This document shows positions 14,601-54,508 of a DNA stretch of 64,000 nucleotides, in pieces. The notes under the pieces were generated by a model. It made no database searches. It was given only the letters and a program-made list of their open reading frames with translations, and was not told the origin of the DNA. The translations under genes were made by a program, and so were the position numbers. The DNA lies in NCBI GenBank assembly GCA_965219585.1, contig CBDCOA010000003.1:2001375-2065374 (forward strand). The letters are read 5' to 3'. Within the stretch, counting starts at the first letter, position 1. The number at the start of each line of letters is the position of its first letter. Source of the DNA: Bryobacterales bacterium (lineage in GTDB: Bacteria; Acidobacteriota; Terriglobia; Bryobacterales; UBA6623).

Positions 14601-17600
14601 GGCGCGCGGCGCGAGTCGGCTCGAGGCGGGCTGACGTTCGAGACCGAGATGTACAGCTCGGCCCCGGCGTGGTTGGGGGATCACCGGGTGTTCGGCATGG
14701 TGGTGGCGCCCGGCGCCCTGTACGGCGTGCTGGGCGTGGAAGTGGCGGCATCGGCGGCCGGCGAGGGCGCGGCGGTGCTGGAGGACCTGCAATTGCACGA
14801 GCCCCTGGTGTGGGCCCAAGAGACTCCGGATGGGGTGGCTGGCGGCGAGGGGCGCAGCGTACAGGTATTCGTCGACGGGGACGAGGGGGCCTCGCCCCGG
14901 GTCGTCGAGGTCTACAGCCGAGCAGGATCGGAGGCGGCGTGGCAGTTGCACGCCACGGCACGTGTCCTGCGGGGCCGGGCGGACACGGGCGGGGCGATCG
15001 ATCCGAAGGCCCTCAGGGAGGGCCTGTCGAGCGTGGATTCGGCGGATTTCTACCGCGGCGTCGCGGAGAGAGGCATTGAGTACGGCGCGCTCTTCCGGGG
15101 GCTGGCGGCGGTCTGGTCCGGGCCAGGGGAGGCTCTCGGCGAAGTGGTGCTCCCGCCGGAGGCGGACCGGGGCGAGATGTGGCTGCACCCGGCCCAGCTG
15201 GATGCGTGCTTCCAAGTGGTTGGCACCACGGGAGGTGACGACGGGGACAGTGCCGCGGATACCTTCATGCCATTCGGATGGGAGCGCTTGTGGCTGGCCG
15301 GACCGCTGCCCGACCGCGTGCTGTGCCACGCGCGGACACGGCAGGCGAGGGGGGCGGGGGGAGCCGGCGCTGAAGCCTCCGAAGTTCAAGTTGTCGATCT
15401 AGGGTTGTACGACCAGCAGGGCATGCCTCTGGGCGGAGTCAGCGGGCTGGTCCTGAAACGGGCGACGCGGGCAGCGTTGCTGTCGGCCGTCGAAGGCGTG
15501 GATGACCTGCTGTACGAGGTGGTGTGGCGGGAGCGGCCGCAGCTGGGCGGCCCGCAGTCGGCGGATTTCCTGGCGGCCCCGGGCGTGGTGGGCGAACTCA
15601 GGGGAAGCTTTGCCGAGAACCTCGAAGCGGAAGGCGCGGCCCTGGAGTCCTGGGACGATTTGCTGGCGGGCTTGGCGCAATTGTCGCAGTCGTACGCCCT
15701 GGCGGGGATGGATGCCTTGGGCTGGCATCGCGAGACGGGCGCGATTGTCGAGCCAGAGCCGTTGCGGCGTCAGCTCCGCGTGGTTGCGGACCACCGGCAG
15801 CTCTTCCGGCGACTGCTGGAGATGCTCGAGCAGGCCGGGATCTTGCAGGCGCAGGCAACGGAATCCCCCAGCTGGGTGGTGACCGCCGGTTCGGGCGAGC
15901 CCCTGCCCGAGGGCGTGGCGGAGAACCCCCGGGCCCTTGGAGCGGAGCTCTTGGAGCGGCACCCGGCCGGATCGCAAGAACTGGGTCTGCTCATGCGCTG
16001 CGGGGATGCGCTGGCAGACGTGCTGGCGGGGCGGGTGGAACCGCTGGAGTTGCTGTTCGGCGGCGAAGATTCCGGGGCAGCGGGCTTGTACCACCACTCG
16101 CCGGGGATGCGGGCGGCGAATCGCACGCTTGGCGCCGCGGTTGGCTTGCTGGCGGCAGGCCTGCCGGAGCGGCGGCGATTGCGGGTCTTGGAAGTCGGGG
16201 CCGGCACGGGCAGCGCTACGGCGCAGGCGCTCCAGACGCTGCCGAAAGGTCGATTCGAGTATCTCTACACGGATATCTCGGCGGGGTTCTTTGCCGAGGC
16301 AGAAGAGCGGTTCGGCGCGGAGCACGCGGGGATCGACTACCGCGTGCTGGACATCGAGGCGGATCCGGAAGTGCTGGGCCTGGACGCGCACGGGCACGAC
16401 TTGATCATTGCGGCGAACGTGTTGCACGCGACCCGGGACCTGGAGAAGACGCTGGAAAATTGCCGCAGGCTGCTGGCGCCGGCCGGGCTGCTGGTGGCAT
16501 TGGAAACGTTCCGCCCCCAAGAGTGGATGGACCTGACGTTCGGGTTGTTGGAGGGCTGGTGGCGGTTCTCGGACCGGTACCGGAGCGAGCACGCAATGGC
16601 GGGAGAGGCCGCGTGGCGGCAGGCCTTGAAGGACGCCGGCTTCGGCGATGCCGAGGTGCTGCAGGGCTGTGTCGGAGATGTGGTCTGGCAGGGCGTGATC
16701 GTGGCGCGGGGGCCGCTCGAAGTGGACGAAGCGCCGGGCTTGTGGGTGCTGGCAGGGAACGGATCGGAGTTGGTTCAAGAACTGGCCGGGCGGCTGGCGA
16801 CACGCAACCAGACGGTGGTTGTGGCCGGTCCGGGGACGCGGCCCGAGGCATCGCCGCATGCGCGGATCACGAGCGCTGACGTGGACCCGGCGAAGCGGGA
16901 GGCCTGGCGTGCGCTGCTGGAGGGCCTGCCCGCCGACGCCCGCTTGCGGGGAGTGGTTCACTTGGGGGCCTTGGACGAGCGTGGGAATGCGGTCACGGCG
17001 GCCGAATTGGCGGAATGCACGGCCCGCATCGGAAAAAGTGCGCTGGCGCTGGTGCAAGGCTTGCAGGACGCGGGGGCGGAGCCTCTCGACGGCTTGTGGT
17101 TCGTGACGCGCGGCGGCCAGGTGGTCAAGCGCGACCAGGGTGGCGAGCTGGCAGGAGCGACGCTGTGGGGCTTGGGCAAGGCGGTGGCCTTGGAGGCGCA
17201 CCAGCTGCGGCCCCGCATGGTGGACCTGGACCCGCGGGAGCCGGAGCCCTTGGGCAGGCTGGTGGATGAGCTGCTGCACGCCGACCGCGAGACGCACGTT
17301 GCGCACCGGGGCGCGGCCCGCTACGCGGCCCGCCTCGCGCGCAGCGCCGGGACAGGACGGCTTGGCCTGCCCGGGGAGCCGGGCTGGCGATTGGCACGTC
17401 CCGCCGGCGGCGAGCTGGACGCCCTCGGGATCGAGCCGGCCGGGCTGGCGGCGCCGGGCGCCGGCGAGATCCGCGTGGCGGTGGCTGCGGCGGGGCTGAG
17501 CCTTCACGACGTCCTGATCGCGATGGGCACCGTGGATCAAGCAAGCCCCCTGGGCACCGAGTTTTGCGGCCGTGTGGTTGCGATCGGCCCAGGCGTCACC

Positions 17601-20600
17601 GCCGTGTCCGTCGGCGACCGGGTGATCGGACTAGCGGCGGGAGCCTACGGTCCCGAGGTCGTCACCAGCCAGGAACTGGTCGCGAAAGCCCCCGGCGAAT
17701 TCCCGGCAGCGGCATTGGCGACGATCCCGGCAGCGTTCGTGACGGCGGCGCTGGCGTTGGAACTGGGCGGCCTCGAGGCTGGCCAGAGAGTGCTGGTGCA
17801 CACCGGGGCCGGGGATGTGGGCCTGGCGGCGATCCAACTGGCGCGCGCGGCGGGCGCGGCGGTGTTCGCGACGGCAAGCACCGAGAAGCTCGCCCACTTG
17901 CGGTCACTGGGCGTCGAGCAGGTGTTCGACAGCCAACCCGCGGCGTTCGGCCAAGAAGTGCTCGCAGTCACCGCGGGAGCCGGCGTCGAAATGGTGCTGA
18001 GCAGCCTGACGGGGCCGGGCTTCATCGAGGCGAGCCTGACGTGCCTGGCGCAGGGCGGCCGGTTTGTCGAGATCGCGGGTCGCGACACTTGGAGCGCTGA
18101 ACAGATGGCCGAGGCCCGGCCGGACGTGGGCTACCACACGCTGGCCGTGGATCGACTCGTGAGCGAGGAGCCGGAAAGGGTCGGGGCCCACCTGAGGGTC
18201 GTCGCACAGGGGATGGAAAACGGGGCGCTGGTGCCGCTGCCGCACAGCGCATGGCCGCTGGCGGAGGCGGGAGGGGCCATGGAGTACTTCCGGTCGGAGC
18301 GTCCCGTCGGAAAGGCCGTGCTAACACTGCCGCGGCTGGTGACCGGGGGACTGCGCGAGGACGGGACATACCTAATCACCGGCGGGCTGGCAGGGATCGG
18401 ATTGCTGGCGGCCGGCTGGCTGGCGGACAACGGGGCGCGTTGGATCGTGCTGAACGGCCGGCGTGAGCCCGGCCCCGAAGCGGAGGCGGCGATCGCGGGT
18501 CTGCGGGAGCGGGGAGTCGAGGTGCGCGTGGAGTTGGCGGACGTGGCCGACTCGGCGGCGGTGGACGGCATGCTGGAGCGGATCGGAGCCACGATGCCGC
18601 CGCTGGCAGGAGCGATTCACAGCGCGGGCGTGCTCGCGGACGCATCGCTGGCCAACCAGGGCTGGGAGCGGTTCGAAAAGGTAATGGGGCCGAAGGTGCT
18701 CGGGGCCTGGCACCTGCACCGGGCGACCTTGGGCCGGGATCTGGACCTGTTCGTTCTGTTCTCGAGCCTCACGGGCGTTCTGGGGAACGCTGGCCAGGCG
18801 AACCACGCGGCGGCGAACGCCTTCTTGGACCAGCTGGCACGGCACCGGCAGTCGCTGGGCTTGCCCGGCCAGTCGATTGCGTGGGGGCCTTGGTCGGAGG
18901 TCGGCGAGGCCGAGGAACAGCGCTCGCGGATCGCGGAGCGCCTGGCAGCGACCGGTCTGGGCTGGATCGTTCCGCGCCGGGGCATGCGGGCTCTCGACAG
19001 GCTGCTGCGGCAAGACGTGGTGAGCGGGACCGTGCTGTCCGTGGATTGGCCGCGGTTCGGTTCTCGGCTGCCTGCCAGGCAGTCTCTGCTGGAGGAACTC
19101 GTCGCTCCCAGGGCAGCTGCGCAGAGCGCGGCCGCCAAGGTCGATCTCGTGGAGCGCCTGAGGACGGTGCCGGCTCGCGAGCGGGAAGGGTTGCTGGCCG
19201 GCTTCCTGCAGGGCGAGCTCCAGGCCGTGCTGCGGCTGGCTTCCCCGCCAGAGGTGACATCCGGGTTCTTCGACCTTGGGATGGACTCGCTGATGGCCGT
19301 GGAACTGAGGAACCGGCTGAACCGGGCGTTTCGCGGGGAGTACAAGGCTTCGAGCACGGCGGTGTTTGACTTTCCCGACATCAAGAGCCTGGCCGAGCAC
19401 TTGGCGGCAGAGCTCGGGGAAACCGAGGCTGCCTCGACGGAGCGGGAGCGGCCGGTGCCAGCGCAGGCGCTGGAGGGCGGAATCGCGATCGTCGGAATGG
19501 CGTGCCGGTTCCCGGGAGCGCGGGACCTGTCGGAATTCTGGGATGAGCTCGAGGGGGCTGGATGGGCCGTGACGCCCGGTCGACAAGGTTCCGCGGTGGG
19601 GCCGACGGAAGACGACTTTCCGGAGAGCCTGGGCGAACACGACGCTCGCCGCTGGGGCGCGTTCGTCGACGAGATAGACCAGTTTGACGCGGAGTTCTTC
19701 CGCATCGCGCCCGTGGAGGCGGAGTTGCTGGACCCGCAGCAACGCCTGTTGCTGGAGACAAGCTGGCTCGCGCTGGAGGAGGCGGGAATCGACCCGGGCC
19801 GGCTGAAGGGCGGCCGCAGCGGGGTTTATGCGGGGATCTACACCAACGACTACTCGGAGCTCATTGACCGCGCGGGGCGCAGGACGACCGACTTGTACGT
19901 GGCAACCGGCAACTCGGCCAGCACGGCGATCGGGCGAGTGGCATTCGCGCTGGGGCTGGAAGGGCCGGCGATGGCCATTGACACGGCCTGCTCGTCATCC
20001 TTGGTCGCGGTCCACCAAGCGGCGGTGGCGTTGCAGAGGGGGGAGGCGGACCTGGCGTTGGCGGGAGGCGTGAACGCGATCCTGACGACGACCGGCAGCG
20101 AACTCTTGGCCAAGGGAGGGCTGTTGGCTCCGGACGGGCGCTGCAAGACATTCGACGGGTCGGCGGACGGGTTTGTGCGGGGCGAGGGATGCGGGGTCGT
20201 GGTGCTGAAGCGCCTGCGCGAAGCGGAGGCGGACGGGGACCGCATCTGGGCAGTGATCCGGGGGTCGGCGGTGAACCAGGACGGGGCGAGCGCGGGCCTG
20301 ACGGTGCCGAACGGGCCGGCGCAGGAGCGTGTGATCGGAGACGCGCTGGCGCGGGCGGGGCTGGAACCAGCCGAGGTCGACTATCTGGAGGCACACGGGA
20401 CGGGGACAGAACTGGGCGATCCGATCGAGGTGCAGGCCGCGGCAGCGGTCTACGGGCGCGGACGGGCGCCAGATCGACCGCTGTTGATGGGATCGGTGAA
20501 GACCAACATCGGCCATCTGGAGGCAGCCGCGGGCATTGCCGGCCTGATCAAGGTCGCGCTGTCGATGGAACGCGGAGTGCTGCCGCGGCACTTGCATTTC

Positions 20601-23600
20601 GAGAAGCCGAGTCCGCGCATCGACTGGGACGCGCTGCCGGTGGAGGTGGCCGCGGAGGCTAGGCGCTGGCCGGCGACGCCGGGCCGACCGGTGCGGGCGG
20701 GGGTGAGTTCGTTCGGGCTCTCGGGAACGAATTCCCACGTAGTGCTGGAGGCGCCCGATCGCGACGGGAAAGGCCCCAGGGACCGCGCAGCCACGGCAGA
20801 ATCTGAGAGTGGCGGATCGCGGGAGCGGCTGTTGCCGTTGTCGGGAAGGTCGCCGAGGGCGGTGCGGGAGCTGGCGGGCCGCTACCTGTCGTGGCTGCGA
20901 GACCGCGACGGCGAGGCATCGGGCGAGCAGGAGTCGCGGTCCCTGCTGGCAGACATGGCTTGGACGGCAGGTCTGGGCAGGAGCCATTTCGACCATCGGG
21001 CCGGACTGGTGTGCGCTGATCTCGCGGAACTGCGGTCCGGGCTGGAGGCGGTGGTCGCGGGCCGCGAGATCGCGCGGGCCGCCCACGGGCCGCAAGTGGC
21101 GTTCGTCTTCACCGGCCAGGGCAGCCAGTGGGGCGGCATGGGGCGCTGGCTGTACGAGCGGGAGCCGGTGGCGCGGGCCGTGCTGGAGCGCTGCGAGCAG
21201 GCCATGCAGGAGTTGCGCGGGGCGTCGCTGCTGGACGTGATGTTCGGGCGGCCGGGGGCGGCCGGGGATTTGGACGACACCGGCTGGACGCAGCCGGCGC
21301 TGTACGCGCTGGAGTGCGCGCTGGCGGCGCAGTGGGCCAGCGTGGGAGTGCGGCCGGCGGCGGTGCTGGGGCACAGCGTCGGGGAGATCGCGGCGGCGCA
21401 CGTGGCGGGAGTGTTCGGCCTGGAGGACGGCCTGCGGTTCGCGGCAGCGAGGGGCGAGTCGATGGGATCGCTGCCGGTGGAAGGGGAGGCGTCCGGGGCC
21501 ATGCTGGCGGTGTTCGCTCCGCAGCAGCGGGTGGCCGAGGCGCTGGCGGAGCACGGCGGAGGCGCGGCGGAAACGGGGCTGGGCGTGGCGGCGGAGAACG
21601 GCACGCACCGGGTGGTGAGCGGGCCGCGGGCCGCGCTGGAGGCACTGGCGGAGCGCTTCGAGCTGGCGGGAGTGCGGGTGGCACGGCTGAACACCAGCCA
21701 CGCATTTCACAGCGCCCTGATGGACCCGGCGCTGGACACCATCGAGGGGGCGCTGGAGGCCGTAGAGCTGGGGACGCCTGCGGTGCCGCTGGTCAGCAAC
21801 GTGACCGGCCGGGCGCTGCGCGCGGGCGAGCGGATGGACGGGGCGTACTGGCGGCGCCAGGCGCGGGAGCCGGTGGCGTTCGCGGCAGGCGTGGCGGCCT
21901 TGGCGGAGATTGGCGCGGGGCTGGTGGTCGAGATCGGCCCGCAAGCGGTCCTAGGGCCGTTGGTGGAGCAGGCGTGGCCGGCGGGGAACGGCGGCGGGTC
22001 CGGCTCCAAGCCGGCAGTGCTGGCGAGCCTGCGGCGGGAGGAGGGCGCGGCAGGCGGCTTCGCAGCGGCCGCGGCCGCTGCGTACGAAGCGGGCGCGGCT
22101 GTCCACTTCGAGGGCTTGTTCGCGGGCGAGAGCCGGCGGCGAATGTCCCTGCCGGGGTACCCGTTCCAGCGCGAGCGGTTCTGGGTCGAGCCGCCGAAGC
22201 GACGGATCGCGGGCGGCGGCCATGCGCTGCTGGGCGTGCGGCACGAGGCGGCACGAGGCGGGGTCACGTTCGAGACCGAGATGTACAGCTCGGACCCGGC
22301 GTGGCTGGAGGAGCATCGCGTCTTCGGCATGGTGGTCGCTCCGGGCGCCCTGTACGGCGTGATGGGCGTGGAGGTGGCAGCCACGCAGAGCGGCGCGGGC
22401 GCGGCGGCGCTGGAGGACCTGCAATTGCACGAGCCGCTGGTGTGGGACCAGGCGCGGCCGGATGGGGCGGCTGGCGGCGATGGGCGCAGCGTGCAGGTGT
22501 TCGTCGACGGCGCGGCGGGGTCCTCTGGCCGAGTCTTCGAGGTTTACAGCCGAGGGGGAGCGGAGAGCGCGTGGCGGTTGCACGCCACGGCACGCGTGCG
22601 GCGGGGCCAGGCGGACACGGGCCGGGCGATCGACCCGCAGTCCCTGCGGACGGGCTTGTCGGGCGTGGACTCGACGGATTTCTACCAGAGCATCGCTGAA
22701 AGAGGCATTGAGTACGGCCCGCTCTTCCGGGGGCTTGCGGCGGTCTGGACCGGGCCCGGGGAGGCCCTCGGCGAGGTGGTGCTCCCGCCGGAGGCAGGCC
22801 GGGACGGAATGTGGATGCACCCTGCCCAGCTGGATGCGTGCTTCCAGGTGGTTGGCGCCGCGGGAAGAGACAGCGGGGAGAGCGGCGCGGATACCTACAT
22901 ACCGTTCGGATGGGAGCGCTTGTGGCTTTCTGGCCCCCTGCCCGGGCAGCTGTTGTGCCACGCGCGAACACGGGAGGCCGGGCATGCCGCAGGTGCCGGT
23001 TCCGAGGCCGCCCAGACGCTGGTGGCTGATCTTGACCTGTACGACCAGCGGGGCATGCCGCTGGGCGGAGTCAGCGGGCTGGTTCTGAAACGGGCCACGC
23101 GGGCAGCGCTGCTCTCGGCCGTCGAAGGCGTGGACGACCTGCTGTACGAACTGGTGTGGCGGGAGCGGCCGCGGATCGGCGGGCCGCAATCAGCGGACTT
23201 CCTCGCGGCACCGGCTGCGGTGCGGGGACTCGCGGGGAGCTTTGCCGAGTGGCTTGCGGCGGGAGGCGTCCCGCTGGCGTCTTGGACCGCCTTGGAGGGC
23301 GGGCTGGAGCAGTTGTCACGCTCGTACGCCATGGCCGCCTTGGAGGCCTTGGGCTGGCGGCGCCGGAAGGGGTCGGTCGTGGACCCGTCGCGGTTGCGGA
23401 GGCAGCTGAAGGTGGTGGCCGACCACCGGAAGCTGTTCAGCCGCCTGCTGGGGATGCTGGCGGAGGCCGGGCTACTGCAGGCAAGGGCGGCGGATTTGCC
23501 GGGCTGGAGCGTGGCCGTCGGCGCGAGGGAGGACCTGCCGGAGGACCTCGTGGAACCGCGGGAGCTCGCGAGGCTGTTGCGCGAGCGGCATGCGCACGGC

Positions 23601-26600
23601 TCGGTCGAGCTTGGGCTGGTGATGCGCTGCGGCGAGGCGTTGGCGGACGTGCTGCGGGGCCGGGTCGATCCACGGGAGCTGCTCGGCGGCGATCATGCCG
23701 GGGCGCAGGGCGTGTACCGGGACGCTCCGGCCATGCGGGCCGTGCACCGCATGATGGGTGCGACGGTGGGGGCGCTGGTGGCAGGCCTGCCGGAGCAGCG
23801 GCGCCTGCAGGTGCTGGAGATCGGGGCCGGCACGGGGAGCGCGACGGCGGAGGTGCTGGCAGCGCTGCCGGAGGGGCGCTTCGACTACTTCTACACCGAT
23901 ATCTTGGCGGGCTGCTTCCCCGAAGCGCGGGAGCGGTTTGGCGCGGCGATTGAGTGCCGGGTGCTCGACATCGAGGAGGATCTGGCAATTCAGGGACTGG
24001 AGGCGCACCGATACGACCTGGTGGTCGCGGCCAACGTGTTGCACGCGACGCGGGACTTGGGGAAGGCCTTGGAGAATTGCCGGAAACTGCTGGCACCGGC
24101 GGGGCAGCTGGTGACGTTGGAGGCCTTCCAGGCGGCGGCATGGCGGGACTTGACCTTCGGTCTGGCAGAGGAATGGTGGTGGTCCTCAGATCGGTACCGA
24201 GGCGAGTGCCCGCTGGTGGGGGCGAGCGTGTGGCGGCAGGCCTTGGCGGATGCTGGCTTCGGCGAGGCGGAAGTGCTTGAGGGCGCTGTCGAGGACGCAG
24301 TCTGGCACGGGGTGATCGTGGCGCGAGGCCCGTTGGAAGTGGAGCAAGATCCGGGCCTGTGGGTACTGGCGGGAGACGCATCGCCAGCGGTTTGGGAATT
24401 GGCCGAGAAGCTGGCGGCTAGCAACCAAGCCGTGATCGTGGCAGGGCAGGCGGAGGAGCGTGATTCGGCACAGCCAGCAGGGGTCACGACGGCGTATGTG
24501 GACCCGACGAGACGAGAGGCTTGGCGGGCGCTGCTGGGCGACCCGCCGGCCGAGGCCCCGTTGCGGGGCGTGGTGCACTTGGGTGCGCTGGAGGGTCGCG
24601 GCGCGGCTGCCGCGACGCCGGAACTCGCCCAGGACGTGGCCCGTATCGGGGCGAGTGCACTGGCGCTCGTGCAGGGACTGCAGGATGCCCAGGCGAAGCT
24701 TCTGGATGGCGTGTGGTTCGTGACGCGGGGCGGCCAGGCGGTCGAGCGCGAGCGGGGCGGCCAGGTGGCGGGGTCGGCGCTGTGGGGCCTAGGCAAGACC
24801 GTGGGTCTGGAGGCGCCGCAGCTGCGTGCGCGGATGGTCGATCTCGATCCGCGGCTGCCGCTGCAGCTGGACGCGCTGGTGAGCGAGTTGCTGCACGCCG
24901 ACCCGGAGACGCATATCGCTCACCGAGGTGCGACGCGTCATGCGGCCCGGCTCGTGCGCGGCCCCCGGACGGGACGGCTGCGGCTGCCAGAGGAGGCCGG
25001 CTGGCGCCTGGCGCGAGACGCCGCCGGAGCCTTGGACGCGCTGAGAGTGGAGCCTGCCAGCCTGGCCGCGCCAGGAGCGGGAGAGATCCGCGCGTCGGTG
25101 ACCGCCGCTGGGCTCGATTTTCACGACGTCTTGTTCGCAATGGGGATCGCCGACCTGCAGAGCGAGCTGGGGGCGGAGTTCTGTGGTCACGTGACGGAGA
25201 CCGGCACGGGCGTGACCGCGGTGTCTGTCGGCGACCGGGTGGTCGGTCTTGCCGCGGGAGCCTTCGGCCCCGAGGTCGTCACCAGCGAGGAATTGGTTGC
25301 GAGGGCACCCGCCGGGCTGTCGGCGGCGGCCTTGGCAACCGTGCCGACGGCATTCTTGACGGCGGCACGGGGCTTCGAGCTGGCCGGCCTTGAGGCTGGC
25401 GACAGCGTGCTGGTGCATGCCGGAGCCGGGGCCGTGGGCATGGCAGCGATCCGGCTGGCCCAAGCGGCGGGTGCGGTGGTGATCGCGACGGCGAGCGATT
25501 CCAAGGGTGCCTACGCGCAGTCGCTGGGCGTGGAGCACGTGTTCGAAGGCCAGGCCACGGCATTCGCGCAGAAGGTGCTGGATGTCACCGGGGGAGCGGG
25601 TGTCGCGATCGTGCTGAACGGCGCGGCCGGGCCCGACTGCGTCGAGGCGAGCCTGTCGTGCCTTGCCCGGGACGGGCGGTTCGTCGAAACCGTCAGGGAC
25701 GGCTCGTGGAGCTCGGAGCAGATGGCAGCGGCCAGGCCGGACGTGGCCTATCACGCTCCGGCGATCGATCAACTCCTTGTCGATGAGCCCGGGCAGATCG
25801 GGACCCAGCTGCGGGCCTTGATGCGGCGCATGGAAGCAGGAGAGTTGGAGCCGCCGCTCTACAGCGCCTGGCCGGTGGCGGAGGCGGGAGCGGCAATGGA
25901 GCTCCTGCGGTCGGGGCGCACCGAGGGCAAGCTCGCGCTGATGCTGCCGCCGCTCGCGAGCGGGGGCCTGCGCGAGGACGGGACATATCTGGTGACGGGC
26001 GGGCTCGCGGGGATCGGTCGACTCGCGGCGGGCTGGTTGGCTGACAGCGGGGCGCGCTGGATCGTGCTGAATGGCCGACGGGAGCCTGATGCCGAGGCGA
26101 GAGCGGCAATCGCGTCACTACGGGAGCGGGGAGTCGATGTGCGCACGGAGTTGGCGGACGTGACCGACCCTGCGGCCGTGGACGCCATGCTGGAGCGCAT
26201 CGAAGCCACGATGCCCGCGCTGGCGGGAGTCATTCACAGCGCGGGCGTAATTTCAGACGCGTCCCTGGCCAACCAAGACTGGGAGCGGTTCGAAGGGGTG
26301 CTGGGGCCGAAGGTGCTCGGGGCCTGGCACCTGCACCGGGCGACCGCGAACCGAGACCTGGACCTGTTCGTGCTGTTCTCAAGCATCGCGGGCGTGCTCG
26401 GAAACCCCGGACAGGCGAACTACGCGGCGGCGAACGCGTTTCTGGACCAACTGGCGCGGCACCGGCGCTCGTTGGGTCTCGCGGGCCAGTCGATCGCTTG
26501 GGGACCTTGGTCAGTCACTGGCCAGGCAGAGGAGCTGCGTTCACGGCTTGCAGAGGGGATGGCAGCGGGCGGCGTGGGCTGGATCCGTCCGCGACGGGGC

Positions 26601-29600
26601 CTGCGGGCCTTGGACAGGCTGGTGCGCCAGGACGTGGTCAACGGGACTGTGCTGTCGGTTGACTGGCCGCAGTTCGCCTCTCGCTTGCCTGTCACGCTGC
26701 CCCAGCTGGAAGAACTGGTGGCAGCCGGGCCGGCTGCGCAGGACAGGGCCGCCAAGACGGACCTCGCGGAGCGCCTGAGAGCGGTTCCGGCCGGCGAGCG
26801 CGAGGGGCTGCTGAGCGGCTTCCTGCAGGCTGAGGTCCAGTCTGTGCTGCGGCTGGCGTCGCCGCCGGATCCGACGGCAGGGTTCTTCGATCTCGGCATG
26901 GACTCGCTGATGGCGGTGGAGCTGAGGAATCGCCTGAATCGGGAATTGGGCGGCGAGTACAAGGCCTCGAGCACGGCGATGTTTGATTTTCCCGACATCA
27001 AGAGCCTAGCCGGCCACTTGGCTGCGGAACTCGGGGAGATCGAGCCAGCCCCGATCGAGCGCAAACGGCCGCTGCCAGCGCAAGGACTGGACGGCGGCAT
27101 CGCGATCGTGGGAATGGCGTGTCGATTCCCGGGAGCGCAAGACCTGCCAGGATTCTGGCGCGAACTGGAGGCGGCCGAGTGCGCAGTGACGCCGGGCCGC
27201 CAGAATTCGACGGTGGGACCGACGGACGAGGACGTCGAGGGGCTGCTGGGCGAGGACGACGCTCGTCGTTGGGGGGCGTTCGTCGAGGAAATCGACAAAT
27301 TCGATGCGGAATTCTTCCGCATCGCGCCCGTGGAGGCCGAGCTGCTGGACCCGCAGCAGCGCCTGTTGCTGGAGACAAGCTGGCTGGCGCTGGAGGAGGC
27401 TGGAATTGACCCGGGCCGGCTGAAGGGCGGCCGCACGGGGGTCTATGCGGGGATCTTGAGCAACGACTACTCGGAGCTGATTGACCGGGCGGGCCGAACG
27501 ACTTCCGACCTGTACGTGGCAACCGGCAATGCGGGCAGCACGGCGATCGGGCGAGTGGCATTCGCGCTGGGGCTGGAAGGGCCGGCGATGGCCGTGGACA
27601 CGGCCTGCTCGTCTTCCTTGGTCGCGGTCCACCAAGCAGTTGTCGCCTTGGAAAGGGGCGAGGCGGACCTGGCGCTGGCAGGAGGCGTGAACGCGATCCT
27701 GACGTCGACCGGCAACGAGCTGTTGGCCAAGGGAGGAATGCTGGCGGCAGACGGGCGCTGCAAGACATTCGATGCGTCGGCGAACGGATATGTGCGGGGC
27801 GAGGGATGCGGGGTGGTCGTGCTGAAGCGCCTGCAGGAGGCGCAGGCGGACGGGGACCGCATCTGGGCGGTAATCCGAGGGTCGGCGGTGAATCAGGACG
27901 GGGCCAGCGCGGGCCTGACGGTGCCGAACGGGCCGGCCCAGGAACGGGTGATCGGAGAGGCGCTGGCGCGGGCAGGGCTGGAACCAGCGGACGTTGACTA
28001 CCTAGAGGCGCACGGGACCGGCACGGAGCTGGGGGATCCAATCGAGGTGCAGGCTGCGGCCGCAGCCTACGGGCCCGGACGAGCGCCGGATCGCCCGCTG
28101 TTGATGGGATCGGTGAAGACCAACATCGGCCATCTGGAGGCGGCGGCGGGCGTTGCCGGCCTGATCAAGGTCGCGCTGTCGATGGAGCACGGAGTGCTGC
28201 CGCGGCACTTGCATTTCGAGAAGCCGAGTCCGCGCATCGACTGGGACGCGCTGCCGGTGGAGGTGACCGCCGAGGCCAGGCGCTGGCCGACGACGCCGGG
28301 CCGGCCGGTGCGGGCGGGGGTGAGTTCGTTCGGATTCTCGGGAACGAATTCCCACGTAGTGCTGGAGGCGCCCGATCGCAACGGGAAAGGCCCCGTGGAC
28401 AGGTCAGCCACGGCGGAATCTGAGAGTGGCGGATCGCGGGAGCGGCTGTTGCCGTTGTCGGGAAGGTCGCCGAGGGCGGTGCGGGAGCTGGCGGGCCGCT
28501 ACCTGTCGTGGCTGCGAGACCGCGACGGCGAGGCATCGGGCGAGCAGGAGTCGCGGTCCCTGCTGGCAGACATGGCTTGGACGGCAGGTCTGGGCAGGAG
28601 CCATTTCGACCATCGGGCCGGACTGGTGTGCGCTGATCTCGCGGAACTGCGGTCCGGGCTGGAGGCGGTGGTCGCGGGCCGCGAGATCGCGCGGGCCGCC
28701 CACGGGCCGCAAGTGGCGTTCGTCTTCACCGGCCAGGGCAGCCAGTGGGGCGGCATGGGGCGCTGGCTGTACGAGCGGGAGCCGGTGGCGCGGGCCGTGC
28801 TGGAGCGCTGCGAGCAGGCCATGCAGGAGTTGCGCGGGGCGTCGCTGCTGGACGTGATGTTCGGGCGGCCGGGGGCGGCCGGGGATTTGGACGACACCGG
28901 CTGGACGCAGCCGGCGCTGTACGCGCTGGAGTGCGCGCTGGCGGCGCAGTGGGCCAGCGTGGGAGTGCGGCCGGCGGCGGTGCTGGGGCACAGCGTCGGG
29001 GAGATCGCGGCGGCGCACGTGGCGGGAGTGTTCGGCCTGGAGGACGGCCTGCGGTTCGCGGCAGCGAGGGGCGAGTCGATGGGATCGCTGCCGGTGGAAG
29101 GGGAGGCGTCCGGGGCCATGCTGGCGGTGTTCGCTCCGCAGCAGCGGGTGGCCGAGGCGCTGGCGGAGCACGGCGGAGGCGCGGCGGAAACGGGGCTGGG
29201 CGTGGCGGCGGAGAACGGCACGCACCGGGTGGTGAGCGGGCCGCGGGCCGCGCTGGAGGCACTGGCGGAGCGCTTCGAGCTGGCGGGAGTGCGGGTGGCA
29301 CGGCTGAACACCAGCCACGCATTTCACAGCGCCCTGATGGACCCGGCGCTGGACACCATCGAGGGGGCGCTGGAGGCCGTAGAGCTGGGGACGCCTGCGG
29401 TGCCGCTGGTCAGCAACGTGACTGGGCGGGCGCTGCGCGAGGGCGAGCGGATGGACGGGGCGTACTGGCGGCGCCAGGCGCGGGAGCCGGTGGCGTTCGC
29501 GGCAGGCGTGGCGGCCTTGGCGGAGATTGGCGCGGGGCTGGTGGTCGAGATCGGCCCGCAAGCGGTCCTAGGGCCGCTAGTGGAGCAGGCGTGGCCGGCG

Positions 29601-32600
29601 GGGAACGGCGGCGGGTCCGGCTCCAGGCCGGCGGTGCTGGCGAGCCTGCGGCGGGAGGAGGGCGCGGCAGGCGGCTTCGCAGCGGCCGCGGCCGCTGCGT
29701 ACGAGGCCGGCGCGGCTGTCCACTTCGAGGGCTTGTTCGCGGGCGAGAGCCGCCGGCGGGTGTCCCTGCCGGGGTACCCCTTCCAGCGCGAGCGGTTCTG
29801 GGTCGAGCCGCCGAAGCGACGGATCGCGGGCGGCGGCCACGCGCTGCTGGGCACGCGCCGCGACATGGTCGGCGGGGAAGTCACGTTCGAAACGCAGATG
29901 TTCGCTTCGGCCCCGGAGTGGCTGGGAGACTACTCGGTGCTCGGACTGATCGTGGTCCCCGGGTCCCTGTACGGAGCGGCGGCCGTGGAGACAGCGGGCG
30001 CGATGCCCGGAATGGCCGGGGTCGTGGTCGAGGACCTGCATGTGCAGGTGCCCATGCACTTCGCAGGCGAAGACGGGCACAGCGAGCCTGACGACCGCGG
30101 AAAGACCGTGCAGGTGGTCGTCAAGGACACGGAAGAATCGGCGGCTCGTCGCATGGAGCTCTACAGCCAAGGCCCGGAGGACACGTGGACGCTGCACGCA
30201 GCGGCACGGCTGGGGAGGCCTGCCGACCGTGTCGATTTGCCGGCTGCAGTGGACATTGAAGCGCGCAGGTCGGGGCTTTCGCCCAAGAGCGCGCCAGACA
30301 TCTACCGAGGTCTTGCCGCCACCGGCATCGAGTACGGAGAGGCACTCCGCAGCGTCGAGGCTGTTTGGTCGAGCCAAGGAGAGGCAGTGGCCGAAATTGC
30401 GCTCCCCGGCGGATTGGAGCCGATGGGGTCGTGGCTGCATCCGGCTCAAATCGAGGGCTTCTTCCAGCTAGCCGCCCTGTTGGCGAATGACACGGAGGGG
30501 GCGAGGCCGGGCGCGCTCATTCCTTCCGGATGGGAGCGGCTGTGGCTTGTCGGCCCCCTGCCGGAGCGCCTAGTTTGCTGCGCGCGGATGCGCGCCTCCA
30601 ACGGCGTGGGACTGCAGCGGGCCGGGGATTCCGGGGCCCAGGTTGCAGACCTTGACTTGTACGACCCCCGGGGCATGCCTCTGGGCGGGGTCAGCGGGCT
30701 GGCGTTGAAGCCGACCACGCGGGCAGCGTTGTTGTCTGCAGCCGGGGGCGTGGAGGACCTCTTGTACGAGGTCGTATGGCGGGAGCAACCTTGGGTGAGC
30801 GGGTTGCAATCGGCCGGGTTCCTGGCGGCGCCGAGCGCGGCCGGCGAACTCAGGGGAACCTTCATCGAGAAGCTTGAAGCGGAAGGTGCAGTCCTGGAGT
30901 CTTGGGAAGAGCTGCTGGGGGGGCTGGCGCAAGTGTCGCGGTCGTACGCCCTGGCGGGGATGGAGGCCTTGGGCTGGCATCGCGAGACAGGCGCGATTGT
31001 CGAGCCGGAGCCGTTGCGGAGGCAGCTGAGAGTAGTCGCGGACCACCAGCATCTCTTCCGGCGCCTGCTGGGGATGCTGGAGAAGGCCGGGGTGTTGCAG
31101 GCGCGGGAGACGGAATCCCCAAGCTGGGTGGTGACCGTTGGTTCAGGCGAGCCCTTGCCCGAGGGTGTGGCGCAGAATCCCCGGGCCTTGGCAGAGGGAT
31201 TCTTGGAGCGGCATCCGTCCGGATCGCACGAGATGAGTCTGCTAATGCGTTGCGGGGATGCGTTGGCGGACTTGCTGGCGGGGCGGGTGGAACCGCTGGA
31301 GCTGCTGTTCGGCGGTGAGTTTGCCGGACTGGCGGACTTGTACCACCACTCGCCGGGGATGCGGGCGGCGAATCGCATGCTCGGCGCCGCGGTCGGCTTG
31401 CTGGCGGCAGGCCTGCCAGAGGGACGGCGATTGCGGGTTCTGGAAGTGGGGGCCGGCACGGGCAGCGCCACGGCGGAGGCGCTCAAGGCTCTGCCGGCAG
31501 GTCGCTTCGAATACCTCTTCACGGATCTCTCGGCGGGGTTCTTCGCCGAGGCGGAAGAGCGCTTCGGCGCGACCGACGCGGGGATCGAGTACCGAGTGCT
31601 GAACATCGAGGCGGCCCCTGAAGGCCTGGGCCTGCCAGCGCACAGGCACGACGTGATCATTGCCGCGAACGTGCTGCACGCGACCCGGGACCTGGCCAAG
31701 ACGCTGGAGAATTGCCGGAGGCTGCTGGCGCCGGCAGGGCTGCTCCTGGCATTGGAGACCTTCCGCCCCCAGGAGTGGATGGACCTGACGTTCGGGGCGC
31801 TGGAGGGCTGGTCCCGCTTCTCGGACCAATACCGGAGCGAGCACGCAATGGCGGACGAGGGCGTGTGGCGGCAGGCCTTGGCGGACACCGGCTTCGGCGA
31901 GGTAGAGGTGCTGGAGGGCGGCGTCGGAGATGTGGTCTGGCAGGGGGTGCTCGTGGCGCGAGGGCCACTCGAGGTGGCCGACACGCCGGGCCTGTGGGTG
32001 CTGGCAGGAAACGGATCGGCAGCGGCCCAGGAGCTGGCCGGCCGACTGGCGACCCGCAACCAGACGGTGATCGTGGCGGGTCAGGGGACGATGCCCGAAG
32101 CGTCGCAGCATGCGCGCATCACGGCCGCCGACATGGACCCGGCGAAGCGGGAGGCCTGGCGTGCGCTGCTAGAGGGCCTGCCTGCCGAGGCCCGCTTGCG
32201 GGGCGTGGTGCACCTGGGGGCCTTGAACGAGCAAGGCAATGCGGTCACGACAGCCAAACTGGCGGAATGCACGACCCGCATCGGAGAGAGTGCGCTGGCT
32301 CTGGTGCAAGGGTTGCAGGACGCGGGGGCGGAGCCGCTCGACGGCCTGTGGTTCGTGACGCGGGGCGGCCAGGTCGTCAAGCGCGACCAAGGTGGCGAGC
32401 TGGCCGGGGCGATGCTCTGGGGCTTGGGCAAGGCGGTGGCCATGGAGGCGGACCAGCTGCGGCCCCGCATGGTGGATCTGGACCCGCGGGAGCCGGAGCC
32501 GATGGACAGGTTGGTGGATGAGCTGCTGCACGCCGACCGCGAGACGCACGTTGCTCACCGGGGCGCGGCCCGCTTTGCAGCCCGCCTCGTAAGCAGCGCC

Positions 32601-35600
32601 CGGACAGGACGCCTTGGCCTGCCAGGGGAGCCGGGCTGGCGCCTGACACGCGACACGGGCGGCGCGCCGGACGCCCTCAGGGTTGAGTCGGCCGGGCTGG
32701 CCGCGCCGGGTCCCGGCGAGGTCCGCGTGGCGGTGGCCGCGGCCGGGCTGAATTCTCACGACGTCCTGATCGCGATGGGCATCTCGGACCAGCACAGTCC
32801 GCTGGGCACGGAGTTCTGCGGCCAGGTGACCTCGACCGGCGCGGGCGTGACCGAGGTGTCAGCCGGCGACCGGGTGGTCGGCCTTGCCTCGGGAGCCTTC
32901 GGCCCGGAGGTCCTCGCAAGCGAGGAACTGGTCGCGAAGGCCCCCGACGGATTCCCGGCGGCGGCGCTGGCGGCGATCCCTGCGGCGTTTGTGACGGCCG
33001 AGCTGGCATTGGAACTGGGCGGCCTCGAGGCTGGCCACAGAGTGCTGGTGCACGCGCGGGAGGGGGATGTGGGCCTAGCGGCGGTCCAACTGGCGCGCGC
33101 GGCGGGCGCGGAGGTGCTTGCAACGGCAAGCACCGACATGCTTGCCTACCTGCGGTCGCTGGGTGTCGAGCACGTGTTCGACAGCCAAGCCACGGATCTC
33201 GGCCAGGAAGTGCTCGCGGCGACCGCGGGAGCCGGCGTCGGAATGGTGCTGAACAGCCTGGCGGAGCCGGGCTTCATCGAAGCGAGCCTGGCGTGCCTGG
33301 AGCAGGGCGGCCGGTTTGTCGAGATCGCGGGACGGGACACCTGGAGCGCCGAGCGGATGGCGGAGGCCAGGCCGGACGTGGGCTACCACGTGCTGGCCTT
33401 GGATCGGCTCGCGAGCGACGAGCCGGCGAGGGTGGGGACCCAGCTGAGGTCCGCGGTGCGGAGGATGGGAGCCCGCAAACTGGAGCCGCTGCCGCACAGC
33501 GCATGGCCGCTGGCGGAGGCAGGGGCAGCGATGGAGTACTTCCGGTCGGAGCGTCCCGTCGGCAAGGTGGTGCTGACGCTGCCGCGGCTGGCGACCGGGG
33601 GCCTGCGGGAGGACGGAACGTACCTGGTGACCGGAGGGCTGGCTGGGATCGGATTGCTGGCGGCCGACTGGCTGGCGGACTGCGGCGCGCGCTGGGTCGT
33701 GTTGAACGGCCGCCAAGAACCGGATGCCGAAGCGAAGCCGGCGATCGAGGCCCTGCGGAAGCTGGGAGTCGAAGTGCGCGTGGAGGTGACGGACGTGACC
33801 GACTCGGCGGCCGTGGACGGCATGCTGGAGCGGATCGAACGCACCATGCCGCCGCTGGCGGGAGTGATTCACAGCGCGGGGGTGCTCGCGGACGCCACCC
33901 TGGCCAACCAGGGCTGGGAACGATTCGAACGGGTGATCGGGCCGAAGGTGCTAGGGGCCTGGCACCTGCACACGGCAACCGCAGGCCGGGACTTGGACTT
34001 CTTCGTTCTGTTCTCGAGCATTGCGGGCGTGTTGGGAAACGCCGGCCAGGCGAACCACGCGGCGGCCAACGCGTTTCTGGACCAGTTGGCGTGGCATCGG
34101 CGGTCGATGGGCCTAGCGGGCCAGTCGATTGCGTGGGGGCCTTGGTCGGAGGTTGGCGAGGCCGAGGAACAGCGTGCGCGGATCGCGGAGCGCTTGGCAG
34201 CGAGCGGCGTGGGATGGATCGTTCCGCGCCGAGGCCTGCGAGTGCTCGACAGTCTCGTGCGGCGGGACGTGGTGTGCGCGACTGTGCTGTCGGTGGATTG
34301 GTCTCAGTTCGCGTCCCACCTGCCTGCCACCCTGCCACTGCTGCGAGAACTGGTGGCTCCGAGGGCCGGTGGACGGGGTGTGGCCGCCAAGGTCGACCTC
34401 GTCGAGCGCCTCAGAGCGGTGTCGGCTCGCGAGCGCGAACGGCTCTTGGCCGGCTTCCTGCAGGGCGAGGTTCAGGCCGTCCTGCGGCTGGCTTCCCCGC
34501 CCGAGGTGACCTCCGGGTTCTTCGACCTTGGGTTGGACTCGCTGATGGCCGTGGAACTGGGGAATCGTCTGAACCGGGCGTTCGGCGGGGAGTACAAGCC
34601 CACGAGCACGGAGGTGTTTGACTTTCCCGACATCAAGAGCCTGGCCGGACACTTGGCGGCAGCGTTCGGGGAGATCGAGGAAGCCCCGGCCGGGCCGGAA
34701 CGGCCGGTCCCGACGCTAGGACAGGAGGGCGGCATCGCGATCGTGGGCATGGCGTGTCGATTCCCGGGAGCGCGGGACCTGTCGGCATTTTGGGATGAAC
34801 TGGCCGGGGCCGGATGCGCAGTGACGCCGGGTCGCCAGGGTTCGTCGGTGGGGCCCTCGGAAGGGGATTTTCCGGAACAAGTGGGCGAACAGGACGCTCG
34901 TCGCTGGGGGGCGTTCGTCGACGAGATCGACCTGTTTGACGCAGAGTTCTTCCGCATCGCGCCCGTGGAGGCAGAGGTGCTGGACCCGCAACAGCGGATC
35001 TTGCTGGAGACGAGTTGGCTGGCGCTGGAGGAGGCGGGGATCGACCCGGGCCGGCTGAGAGGCGGCCGCACCGGCGTGTACGTGGGGATTGCGACCAACG
35101 ACTATTCGGAGGTGATTGAGCGAGGGGGGCGAAGGACGGGCGATTTGTACGTGGCGACCGGGAATTCGGGCAGCACTGCAATCGGGCGAGTGGCATTCTC
35201 GCTCGGGCTGGAAGGGCCGGCGATGGCCGTGGACACGGCCTGCTCGTCTTCCCTGGTCGCACTCCACCAAGGGGTGGCGGCGTTGGAGCGGGGCGAGGCG
35301 GACTTGGTGCTGGCGGGAGGGGTGAACGCGATCCTGACGCCGACCAGCACCGAACTGCTGGCCAAGGGGGGGATGCTGGCGCCGGACGGCGTGTGCAAGG
35401 CATTCGATGCGGCGGCAAATGGGTTCGTGCGAGGCGAGGGATGCGGGGTCGTGGTGCTGAAGCGTCTGCGGGAAGCGGAGGCGGACGGGGACCGCATCTG
35501 GGCTGTGATCCGGGGTTCGGCGGTGAACCAGGACGGGGCCAGCGCGGGCCTGACGGTGCCGAACGGGCCGGCCCAGGAGCGGGTGATCGGACAGGCGCTG

Positions 35601-38600
35601 GCGCGGGCAGGGCTCGAGCCGGCAGAAGTCGACTACCTAGAGGCGCACGGCACCGGGACGGAACTGGGGGATCCGATCGAGGTGCGGGCCGCTGCTGCGG
35701 CCTACGGGCGTGGCAGGGCGGCGAATCGACCTCTGTTGATGGGATCGGTGAAGACAAACATCGGCCACCTGGAAACGGCGGCGGGAATCGCCGGGCTGAT
35801 CAAGGTGGTGCTGTCGATGGAGCACGGAATGTTGCCGAAGCACCTGCATTGCCGGCAGCTGAATCCGCGCATCGACTGGGACGCGCTGCCCGTGGAGGTG
35901 ACAACGGAGGCCCGGCCGTGGCCGGCTTCGCCGGACCGACCGGTGCGGGCGGGAGTGAGTTCCTTCGGATTCTCCGGAACGAATTCGCACGTGGTCTTGG
36001 AAGCCCCCGAGAGTCACCGTCGCGGGCATGGCCCCTTGATGCCGATCGCCGCGGCGCAGGCTGGAACCGGCGGTCCCCCGGAGCCGCGCGGGAAGCGGCT
36101 CTTGCCGCTCTCCGGGAAGTCTTCGCTGGCGGTGCGGGAGTTGGCGGGCCGCTACCTGTCTTGGCTGGAGAGCCGGGGCGGCGTGCTGGGCCAGGGGGAA
36201 GAGTCGGAATCGCTGCTGGCCGACATGGCGTGGACGGCGGGAGCCGGCAGGAGCCACTTCGAGCACCGGGCCTCGGTGGTGTTCGGGGACCTATCGGAAC
36301 TGCGGGCCGCGCTGGAGGAGCTGGCCGCGGACCGGGAGATCGCGCGCGCAGCCCAAGAGCCGCAGGTAGCTTTCGTGTTCACGGGCCAAGGCAGCCAGTG
36401 GGCTGGCATGGGGCGCTGGCTGTACGAGCGGGAGCCGGTGGCACAGGCAGTGCTGGACCGCTGCGAAAAGGTAATGCAGGAATTGCGGGGAGCGTCCCTG
36501 CTGGAGGTGATGTTCGGGCAGCCGGGAGCGGCCGGGGATTTGGACGACACCGGATGGACGCAGCCGGCGCTGTACGCGCTGGAGTGCGCGCTGGCGGCAC
36601 AGTGGGCGAGCGTCGGACTGTCTCCGGTGGCCGTGCTGGGCCACAGCGTGGGAGAGATCGCGGCGGCGCAAGTGGCGGGGGTGTTCGAGCTGGAGGACGG
36701 TCTGCGGTTTGCGGCGGCGAGGGGCGAGTTGATGGGATCGCTGCCGGTGGACGGGCCGGAGGCAGGGGCCATGCTGGCGGTGTTCGCCTCGCCGCAGCGG
36801 GTGAGTCAGGCGCTGGAGGAGCACGCTGCGGGCGATGACGGATCGGGGCTGAGCCTAGCGGCGGAAAACGGGACGCACCGCGTGGTCAGCGGGCCGTTGG
36901 AGGAGGTGGAGACACTGGCAAAGCGCTTCGAGCAGGCGGGAGTGCGGGTGGCGCGGCTGAACACGAGCCACGCGTTCCATAGCACCCTGATGGACCCAGT
37001 GCTGGACGACATCGAGGAGGCGCTGGAGGCAGTGACCCTGGGTTCGCCCGCAGTAGCCTTGGTGAGCAACGTCACGGGCCGGGCGGTGCGCGAGGGCGAG
37101 CGGCTGGACGGGGCGTACTGGCGGCGGCAGGCGCGCGAGCCGGTAGCCTTCGCGGCCGGCGTACAGGCACTGGCGGAAATCGGCGTCGATGTAGTCGTCG
37201 AGATCGGCCCGCAGGCGATCTTGGGGCCGTTGGTCGAGCAGGCGTGGCCGGCCGAGAGCAGCGACGGAGCGGTTTCGGGACCGAGAGTGGTGGAGAGCCT
37301 CCGACGGGAGGCGGGCGGGGCGAACGGCTTCTCCGCAGCCGTGGCCGGCGCATATGAGGCCGGGGCGGCGATCAGCTTCGAGGGCCTGTTTGCCGGCGAG
37401 ATCAGGCGAAGGGTGCCCCTGCCCGGCTACCCGTTCCAGCGGAAGAGGTTCTGGATTGAGCAAGGCAAGCGCAAGGTGACCGAAGAGGGCCATGCGCTGC
37501 TGGGGGCGCGGCGCGACTCGGCACGAGGCGGGATGGCGTTCGAGACGGACCTGCACGCCACGGACCCGGCTTGGCTGGCAGATCACCGGGTGTTCGGCAT
37601 GGTAGTGGCGCCGGGTGCCTTGTACGGGGTGCTGGGGGTGGAAGCGGCAGCGACGACCGGCGGAACCGATGCAGTGGTGCTGCAGGACCTACAGTTGCAC
37701 GAGCCTATGATATGGCTCGAAGAGCCGGAGGATGGGCCGCCTGCCGGCGAGGGGCGCACCGTGCAGGTGTTCGTGGACGGAGCGGAGGGATCTTCAGGCC
37801 GGCTCTTCGAGGTCTACAGCCAAGGCAGCGGGGAGACTGCGTGGCAGTTGCACGCCACGGCGCGCGTGGAGCGGGGCGAGGCGGGCACGCCCGAAGCGAT
37901 CGGCCTGGGGGCACTCAGGGAGACCCTGTCGAGGGTGGACTCGACCGACTTTTACCGGAGCATCAGGAGGCGAGGCATTGTGCACGGTCCCGCCTTCCAG
38001 GGGCTGGCGGCCATCTGGTCCGGCCCGGGGGAGGCCATCGGCGAGGTGGTGCTCTCATCGCAGGCAGGTCCTGGCAGGTTGTGGATGCATCCGGCGCAGC
38101 TGGATGCGTGCTTCCAGGTGGTCGTCGCCACCGTAAGGGACGCCGAAGAGTTCGATTCAGACACCTACATGCCCATCGGATGGGAGCGCATGTGGCTTGC
38201 GGGCCCCGTGCCGGAGCGGATGTTCTGCCATGCGCGGTTGCTTGAGAGGCCCGATGCAGGTACCCCGGGTCCCGGGCCCGCCGAAGTGTTGGTTGCGGAA
38301 CTTGGGCTGTACGACATGCAGGGCGCGGCCCTGGGCGGAGTCAGGGGACTGGTGCTGAAACGCGCGACGCGTGCCGCGCTGGTGTCCGCCATCGAAGGCG
38401 TGGAGGACCTGCTGTACGAGACGGCGTGGCGGAAACAGCCCCGGGCAGGCAGACAGCGGGCAGCCGATCTCCCAGCGGCACAGGCCGGGTTGGAGCAACT
38501 CAGGGGCAGCTTTGCCGAGAGCCTTGCGTCGGAAGGCGTACCGCCGGAGGCTTGGTCCGCCCTGCATGAGGATCTCGACCGGTTGGCACGGTCATACGCC

Positions 38601-54408: not shown

Positions 54409-54508
54409 CGCCGAAGTCCTTCGGTCCGGGGCCTCGGTCAATCGTCGGGCAGCGGCTGCACGGCAGCCAAGCACCCAAGGGTTGCCGGCAAGCGTCACTC
54501 GCGGCGCA

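Follow-up and report, generated by a model that had tools for sequence, protein, structure and literature searches.

Near-identical acyltransferase cassettes in adjacent modules of a Bryobacterales polyketide synthase: a probable footprint of recent intragenic gene conversion

Two adjacent modules of a giant modular polyketide synthase (PKS) from an uncultured Bryobacterales bacterium share an acyltransferase (AT) cassette that is identical base for base over a core of 1007 nt and nearly so over a surrounding block, and this block was very probably left by a recent intragenic gene conversion that involved the two paralogous modules, here termed D and E. Gene conversion is taken to mean non-reciprocal homologous recombination or repair templated by a paralogous copy. 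The window, that is, the whole stretch of 64,000 nt that was analyzed (contig CBDCOA010000003.1 of assembly GCA_965219585.1, positions 2,001,375 to 2,065,374), opens with a PKS reading frame (20-11698) that is truncated by the edge of the window and is followed by an open reading frame (ORF) of 11,155 aa (11691-45158) that holds the repeat. The tandem modules recur with a period of ~7.6 kb, are 70-80% identical overall in a self-BLAST and, according to Pfam, repeat the order ketosynthase (KS), KS-AT linker, AT, dehydratase (DH), C-methyltransferase (cMT), enoylreductase (ER), ketoreductase (KR), and acyl carrier protein (ACP) (Table 1). The host gene is a cis-AT modular type I PKS: the domains stand in line on one polypeptide, and modules B-F carry the catalytic motifs DTACS, HGTGT, and NIGH/NVGH (KS), GHSVG (AT), and GxDSL (ACP). 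The closest solved structure to the KS-AT didomain is CurL (4mz0, E = 1e-210).

The exact repeat, established by direct comparison and by a k-mer census, pairs 20799-21805 with 28416-29422 at an offset of 7617 nt; it had been predicted to begin at 20800/28417, and the match proved to be one base longer to the left. It is bounded by mismatches at 20798 and, as originally described, at 21806, and as 7617 = 3 x 2539 the two copies lie in frame. Each 100-nt bin from 20800 to 21799 is 100% identical at this offset and identity is 96-98% up to 22199; the 3' extension (21806-22235 against 29423-29852) contains 14 substitutions, where roughly a dozen had been estimated, and is 96.7% identical. Core and extension together make up a block of 1437 nt at 99.0% identity. 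Past the extension identity drops sharply, to 77% in 22200-22299 and to 60% or less beyond, with mismatches dense after 22235. The left edge is soft, D and E being 91-95% identical over 20500-20798 and 80-90% across the KS. A self-alignment, one of the checks proposed for the prediction, places the identity of the block far above that of both flanks. The 1007-nt match is the longest exact direct repeat of the window, the next (136, 76, 71, and 59 nt) lying on the same diagonal, and the census of the whole window found no exact repeat of more than 50 nt between module pairs other than D/E. Random redistribution of the 171 D/E differences of 19482-22235 (20,000 permutations) left a longest mismatch-free stretch of 88 nt on average and of 230 nt at most; together with an analytic probability of ~3e-32 for a mismatch-free gap of 1007 nt, this rules out a chance origin of the run.

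The domain map agrees with the initial assignment of the repeat to KS-AT linker, AT, and post-AT linker; it further shows that the block starts within the first of these and takes in the first 5 residues of the DH. The perfect core begins at residue 440 of module D, which falls in the variable central part of the KS-AT linker, and spans the distal part of that linker and the first ~70% of the AT (21102-22094). The post-AT linker closes with YPFQRERFW, and the block ends at 22235/22236, after GHALLG. The boundary motifs of the block fall at linker/domain junctions, the right tract end coinciding with the post-AT-linker/DH junction and the left end lying inside linker sequence that is still homologous.

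Synonymous divergence (dS) inside and outside the block, the subject of a second proposed check, was estimated by the Nei-Gojobori method on a codon alignment of all modules and describes a steep gradient around the block. Between D and E it is 0.41 in the KS, 0.12 in the 5' shoulder (20604-20798), 0.00 in the core, where 335 codons hold 0 synonymous differences, and 0.10 in the 3' extension; downstream it reaches 1.00 in the DH and 0.5-0.8 from the cMT to the ACP. The same core differs from module C by a dS of 0.26-0.27 and a nonsynonymous divergence (dN) of 0.10, and from module F by a dS of 0.46. At the protein level D and E are 89% identical in the KS (about 90% had been reported), 96% in the KS-AT linker, 99% in the AT, 98% in the post-AT linker, and 44% in the DH, which bears out the earlier remark that the downstream DHs are unrelated in detail; identity is 44-64% across DH, cMT, and ER and 80-82% in KR and ACP. 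Third codon positions hold 10 of the 14 extension differences, and these differences look like ordinary divergence following an earlier homogenization, while the 5' shoulder appears to be part of an older, larger tract. The third-position GC of the AT cassettes is highest in D and E (0.90-0.92), followed by C and F (0.84-0.87) and by B and G (0.71-0.80); this peak in the converted cassette fits GC-biased conversion and is suggestive only.

The mosaic history of modules C, D, E, and F was followed with a per-100-codon identity matrix and with parsimony-informative quartet sites. Sites grouping C with F and D with E (CF|DE) number 27 in the KS, 13 in the linker, 49 in the core, and 16 in the extension; in the 5' shoulder, which lies in the proximal linker, 13 of the 14 sites favor the pairing of D and E. 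In the DH the leading topology is CD|EF (38 sites versus 20 and 11), and from the DH-cMT linker through to the ACP it is CE|DF (56, 103, 52, 26, and 18 sites). The KS-AT, DH, and cMT-ACP portions therefore record three incompatible histories, with topology breakpoints at ~22236 and ~23150, and the per-100-codon identities show the same mosaic. Measured against what is expected of a gene-conversion tract, more than 500 bp at more than 80% DNA identity within one PKS and a length beyond that of conserved motifs, the locus offers 1007 nt at 100% and 1437 nt at 99.0%; synonymous identity lies above that of both flanks, and the phylogeny is discordant over the breakpoints. The contrast between a dS of 0.00 in the core and the values in KS and DH, together with the topology switch at the right edge, upholds the claim of the original prediction that recent intragenic gene conversion homogenized the AT. 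The prediction had also presented the block as direct evidence of the process that shuffles the assembly line. Conversion of the AT homogenizes, however, and adds no diversity; it is the downstream mosaic, in which the DH of C resembles that of D and the cMT-ACP of C that of E, that shows shuffling. The older mosaic blocks imply several earlier exchanges with breakpoints near 22236 and 23150, and the KS similarity of D, E, and F indicates an older exchange. The likeness of C to D and E sets in within ~40 nt of the left end of the core, so the same cassette boundaries appear to have been reused repeatedly. Among the modules, the cMT-ER-KR-ACP regions of C and E (15420-19481 and 30700-34733) are 83-92% identical and the AT-DH regions of C and D (13200-15400 and 20830-23150) 83-90%; the KSs of D, E, and F share 84-87% identity with each other, and that of C shares only 70-71% with them.

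From these patterns we infer that recombination was the mechanism, how many events took place and in which order, and what set the boundaries. An old exchange would account for the likeness among the KSs of D, E, and F. Linker, AT, and post-AT linker would then have been covered by a later tract of ~1.6-1.7 kb (20.5/20.6 kb to 22235), with ~3% divergence (dS ~0.1) accumulating since, and the newest tract, of at least 1007 nt (20799-21805) and with a dS of 0, would have arisen inside it. Nested events, at least two in number, are the best reading. The right end may have been limited by homology, or only linker-bounded cassettes may survive selection, or both may apply; D/E homology stops abruptly at this end, and any heteroduplex would stop with it, because the DH of module E is divergent and probably inactive. 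In ATs, a GHSxG motif with a downstream HAFH is the signature of malonyl specificity, and YASH that of methylmalonyl specificity. The ATs of modules C to F have both GHSVG and HAFH and are accordingly predicted to be specific for malonyl-CoA, and since all four bear the malonyl signature, conversion among them would be a functionally silent homogenization with no switch in specificity; methyl branches of the product would derive from the cMT domains. For the age of the last event, 0 differences in 1007 nt give a 95% upper bound of ~0.3% divergence, which is at or below the 0.2-0.6% that separates strains, so that it should be about as young as strain diversity, or younger; compared with the divergence between co-occurring strains, that of the newest tract is at most about half. 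As a 1-kb direct repeat in frame, the core would also allow unequal crossing-over to delete or add exactly one module.

Kilobase-scale repeats 7.6 kb apart are a classic assembly trap and the sequencing technology behind the window is not known, so the perfection of the core might have been made by assembly or polishing: the AT copies would really be ~97% identical, as the shoulders are, and polishing of the consensus by cross-mapped reads, bubble-popping, or double traversal of a graph node would have made the central 1 kb the same; in an extreme form, one module would have been duplicated in silico. An independent assembly breaks near the edge of the block. KELL22-1_SAMN22237344 scaffold_4037, a short-read contig of 19,630 nt held in ENA and encoding a partial PKS product of 5119 aa, comes from a 99.5% relative and begins at window-equivalent 29798/29799, 54 nt before the block's right edge, which is where an assembly by de Bruijn graph, if made with k=55, would halt at a repeat that ends at 29852. 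This lends indirect support to the warning, given with the original prediction, that the repeat can mislead short-read assemblies. Nevertheless an artefact is unlikely. D and E differ clearly in the DH and in the cMT-ER-KR-ACP region, so two modules exist; window 31976-47505 is collinear, with no indels, with an independently assembled contig (JAJDZN010000329.1, from the Bryobacterales metagenome-assembled genome [MAG] of isolate jk18x40bins.51) at 99.40% identity; and related PKSs on two other MAG contigs, one of them 326 kb long, carry equally long near-perfect cassette repeats. Even with a consensus core, a dS of ~0.1 in the shoulders against 0.41 and 1.0 in the flanks would still demand conversion. 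A very recent tandem duplication of a whole module, after which KS, DH, and reductive loop were exchanged or diverged while the AT cassette kept its identity, would suit the constant ~7.6-kb period of the tandem modules and the accepted origin of PKS modules (PMC8256042). It is nonetheless highly improbable, since 0 differences in 1007 are incompatible with dS values of 0.41 in the KS and 1.0 in the DH, replacements would be needed on both sides that would themselves be conversions, and by quartet sites module C is the partner both of D in the DH and of E in the cMT-ACP portion.

The block could alternatively be a GRINS (genetic repeat of intense nucleotide skews; Nivina et al. 2021), a specialized recoding element that promotes conversion, given that it is a duplicate longer than 500 bp, with identity above 80%, that covers the AT, the commonest GRINS domain, and that its mean absolute GC skew, calculated in 150-nt windows with a 30-nt step, is 0.239 in D and 0.242 in E, above the GRINS threshold of 0.15 that applies to both GC and TA skew (PMC8256042). 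Mean absolute TA skew is below that threshold (0.114 in D, 0.118 in E), GC and TA skews are uncorrelated (r = 0.19 in D and -0.08 in E, compared with ~0.7 in GRINS), and the positive GC skew is a gene-wide property: it is 0.176 for the PKS as a whole, and the ATs of C and F, which are not identical, likewise reach 0.24. On the TA skew and the missing correlation a GRINS identity was rejected, and we regard it as very unlikely. That purifying selection or codon constraint alone keeps the ATs identical, without recombination, is scarcely credible. Catalysis requires the AT, and every module conserves its motifs, yet the same residues tolerate a dS of 0.26-0.46 and a dN of 0.10-0.15 in C and F while the 335 codons of the core show no synonymous difference between D and E, a contrast at synonymous sites that refutes selection as the sole explanation. 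Nor does an overlapping gene impose a second constraint, as the antisense and off-frame ORFs across the block have no Pfam domain.

Several observations weigh against gene conversion as set out above, or limit what can be said of it. Donor and recipient are not distinguishable, the 14 extension differences giving no polarity when compared with module C (D matches 5, E matches 8, and neither matches 1). No read-level or independent D-E sequence was obtained, and the perfection of the core rests on one assembly. By way of an independent copy of the D-E interval, contigs scanned with the AT cassette yielded no more than the AT of module F in the 99.4% relative, whose matching locus begins at window 31976; metagenome contigs gave no match for a core-derived 35-mer with degenerate third positions or for the DH-E protein, and protein-database searches for the D-E interval gave none above 65% identity among the matches listed, which were at most ~1.75x as long as the query, a range that seems to leave the giant ORF and its strain-level copies out of reach. 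Exact-protein look-up yielded no record for RelA and a 462-aa ORF; the exact TPR protein and the sulfotransferase were found in public assemblies, and the contigs recovered through them, from relatives 99.5-99.8% identical to the window, cover positions 35783-64000 only. The divergence of strain-level relatives from the window is 0.2-0.6%, and the single-nucleotide polymorphisms behind it are evenly distributed. Finally, JAJDZN010000329.1, the contig of the species-representative MAG, was assembled by megahit (k141) and matches the window over 41347-56876 of its 62,878 nt. By coordinate arithmetic only, it would reach ~25974, ~3.3 kb past the expected break, and so is apparently unbroken where a perfect core predicts a break, which would also suit an artefactual core. 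That strain may lack the core, or its contig may be rearranged or not collinear. Taken with 0 differences in 1007 nt against a strain divergence of 0.2-0.6%, this apparent continuity raises the tentative possibility, which we consider rather improbable, that the core is younger than the split between co-occurring strains and that the conversion is polymorphic in the population; module number might be so too. If true, the locus would provide a natural in situ system for measuring conversion rate, GC bias, and module gain and loss.

Gene conversion of this kind is ordinary for the PKS class. Nivina et al. 2021 found that 93% of 203 PKS clusters contain duplicated regions (0.3-1.4 kb, more than 80% identical), most often over ATs or KS-AT fragments, and ascribed them to gene conversion (PMC8256042). 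The Bryobacterales block resembles these regions in size class (1.0-1.44 kb), in the preference for AT or KS-AT sequence, and in its reading as intra-cluster conversion. It differs from GRINS in that it is without intense correlated GC/TA skews and in that its copies are 100% identical where 75-95% is typical, and from both GRINS and the duplicated regions in that AT specificity is unchanged. In the cinnamomycin PKS of Streptomyces cinnamoneus (cmm, modules 2/6/7), a gene-conversion region of 100% nucleotide identity lies over malonyl ATs (PMC12391348). Likeness extends to the perfect identity between two modules, the span from the C-terminal side of the KS to the post-AT linker, and the malonyl-CoA specificity of the ATs; however, cinnamomycin is made by an actinomycete macrolide PKS whose modules are non-adjacent and on separate proteins, whereas the two Bryobacterales modules stand side by side on one protein, are fully reducing and equipped with C-methyltransferases, and have a core nested in an older tract. 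Comparable repeats also occur in uncultured bacteria. The 326-kb contig CBDHYI010000003.1 of a Stappiaceae MAG has a 2967-bp repeat at 99.97% across linker, AT, post-AT linker, and DH of adjacent modules (locus L030, 1-2967 versus 6559-9525) and a second of 1018 bp at 99.6% that runs to the post-AT linker (L025, 1-1018 versus 4783-5800); both span the AT cassette and have the same post-AT-linker or DH boundaries. In PKSs of Bryobacterales MAGs (L042, L047), adjacent-module repeats of 2.7-5.5 kb are 90-95% identical, and one such MAG has repeats of 2.7 kb and 5 kb at 92-95%.

DEBS-based AT exchanges are engineered swaps of AT cassettes. The natural tract ends at the downstream boundary used in such swaps, the end of the post-AT linker (YPFQRERFW) and start of the DH; unlike them it is a natural event, and the upstream end of the recent tract is in the variable middle of the KS-AT linker and not at the end of the KS. 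Swap boundaries of the GTNAH...HHYWL type are cited in PMC12391348. The host gene itself invites comparison with the Sup/SupA-like PKSs of sponge symbionts, which have been proposed to make methyl-branched fatty acids (PMC4245539, PMC9426513) and whose clusters occur across phyla in sponge microbiomes (PMC9426513). It shares with them a cMT and a full reducing loop, and its next-nearest AT cassettes, at 52-58% aa identity in a contig scan, belong to MAGs of many phyla; several near homologs are filed under sponge-derived taxon names, such as Candidatus Spongiisocius and Poriferisocius, and many of the nearest are proteins of ~3400 aa. The resemblance is circumstantial, and the Bryobacterales enzyme is much the larger: its two ORFs encode at least 7 modules, and one of them alone 11,155 aa.

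What is new, then, is the instance, the host lineage, the nested structure, and the youth of the event, and the current understanding of PKS evolution is unchanged. The locus provides a clean, datable example of concerted evolution of AT cassettes outside actinomycetes, in an uncultured Bryobacterales bacterium. The match between its tract boundaries and engineered AT-swap junctions gives added weight to evolution-guided rules for PKS engineering, and the in-frame 1-kb repeat predicts a site of module deletion or duplication. Assemblies from short reads will fragment or collapse at this cassette, and module counts for this PKS need long-read support.

Table 1. Coordinates of the repeat, its flanking tracts, and the host PKS modules and domains in the window
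Feature	Position	Strand	Basis or remarks
Copy 1 (module D) of the perfect 1007-nt repeat	20799-21805	+	Exact match, domain map, dS = 0
Copy 2 (module E) of the perfect 1007-nt repeat	28416-29422	+	Exact match
Near-perfect 3' extension, module D	21806-22235	+	AT C-terminus, post-AT linker (YPFQRERFW), first DH residues (GHALLG)
Near-perfect 3' extension, module E	29423-29852	+	14 substitutions versus module D
5' shoulder, module D (proximal KS-AT linker)	20604-20798	+	195 nt, 93% identical to 28221-28415
5' shoulder, module E	28221-28415	+	Comparison and dS with module D
PKS ORF holding the repeat	11691-45158	+	11,155 aa; modules C-G
Module A (partial)	2-3847		
Module B	3848-11697		
Module C	11784-19481	+	
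Module D	19482-27098	+	
Module E	27099-34733	+	
Module F	34734-42335	+	
Module G (terminal, KS-AT only)	42336-45155	+	
KS of module D	19482-20603	+	87% nt and 89% aa identity to KS of E (27099-28220); 85% nt identity to KS of F
DH of module D	22236-23120	+	60% nt and 44% aa identity to DH of E; groups with DH of module C
DH of module E	29853-30731	+	Diverged from all other DHs; catalytic residues replaced

Other features of the PKS bear on its likely product and organization. In the DH of module E (29838-30731) the His of HxxxGxxxxP is replaced by Tyr (DYSVLGLIVVP) and the Asp of DxxxQ by Glu (IEGFFQ), and the domain is equidistant from the remaining DHs (43-48% aa identity). It is probably inactive, in which case the product may retain a hydroxyl at this position; module E still has a cMT, an ER, and a KR. 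Module G ends the giant ORF (stop at 45158) as a KS-AT didomain without an ACP, the stop codon following directly on a YPFQRERYW post-AT motif. Its KS retains Cys/His/His (DTTCSSS, EAHATGS, NIGH); its AT has GHGVG, with the active-site Ser replaced by Gly, and RASH in place of HAFH. The two PKS ORFs overlap by 8 nt at 11691-11698 (ATGGATAA), and the upstream protein has an acidic C-terminal tail (…EEFSDEDDG) while the downstream protein has a helical-looking N-terminus; this arrangement suggests translational coupling and termini resembling docking domains.

A stand-alone sulfotransferase gene (Pfam Sulfotransfer_3/_1, 45783-46931) lies ~620 nt downstream of the PKS, within a low-GC patch (46001-48000, 53% GC versus 65-73% elsewhere). 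An identical protein is encoded in two further public assemblies, and the gene may have been acquired horizontally or may encode a tailoring or release enzyme. Just downstream of it, strains differ by a 19-nt indel (window ~46968 versus L082/L083). Further along, one relative has an extra Mrr_cat/NA-iREase (restriction-like) gene beside the DUF3604 gene (window ~54485 versus L080 13199-14584), and PSCyt2/PSD1 (DUF1549/DUF1553) and DUF1501 genes, of types best known from Planctomycetes, adjoin the cluster at 50597-54408.

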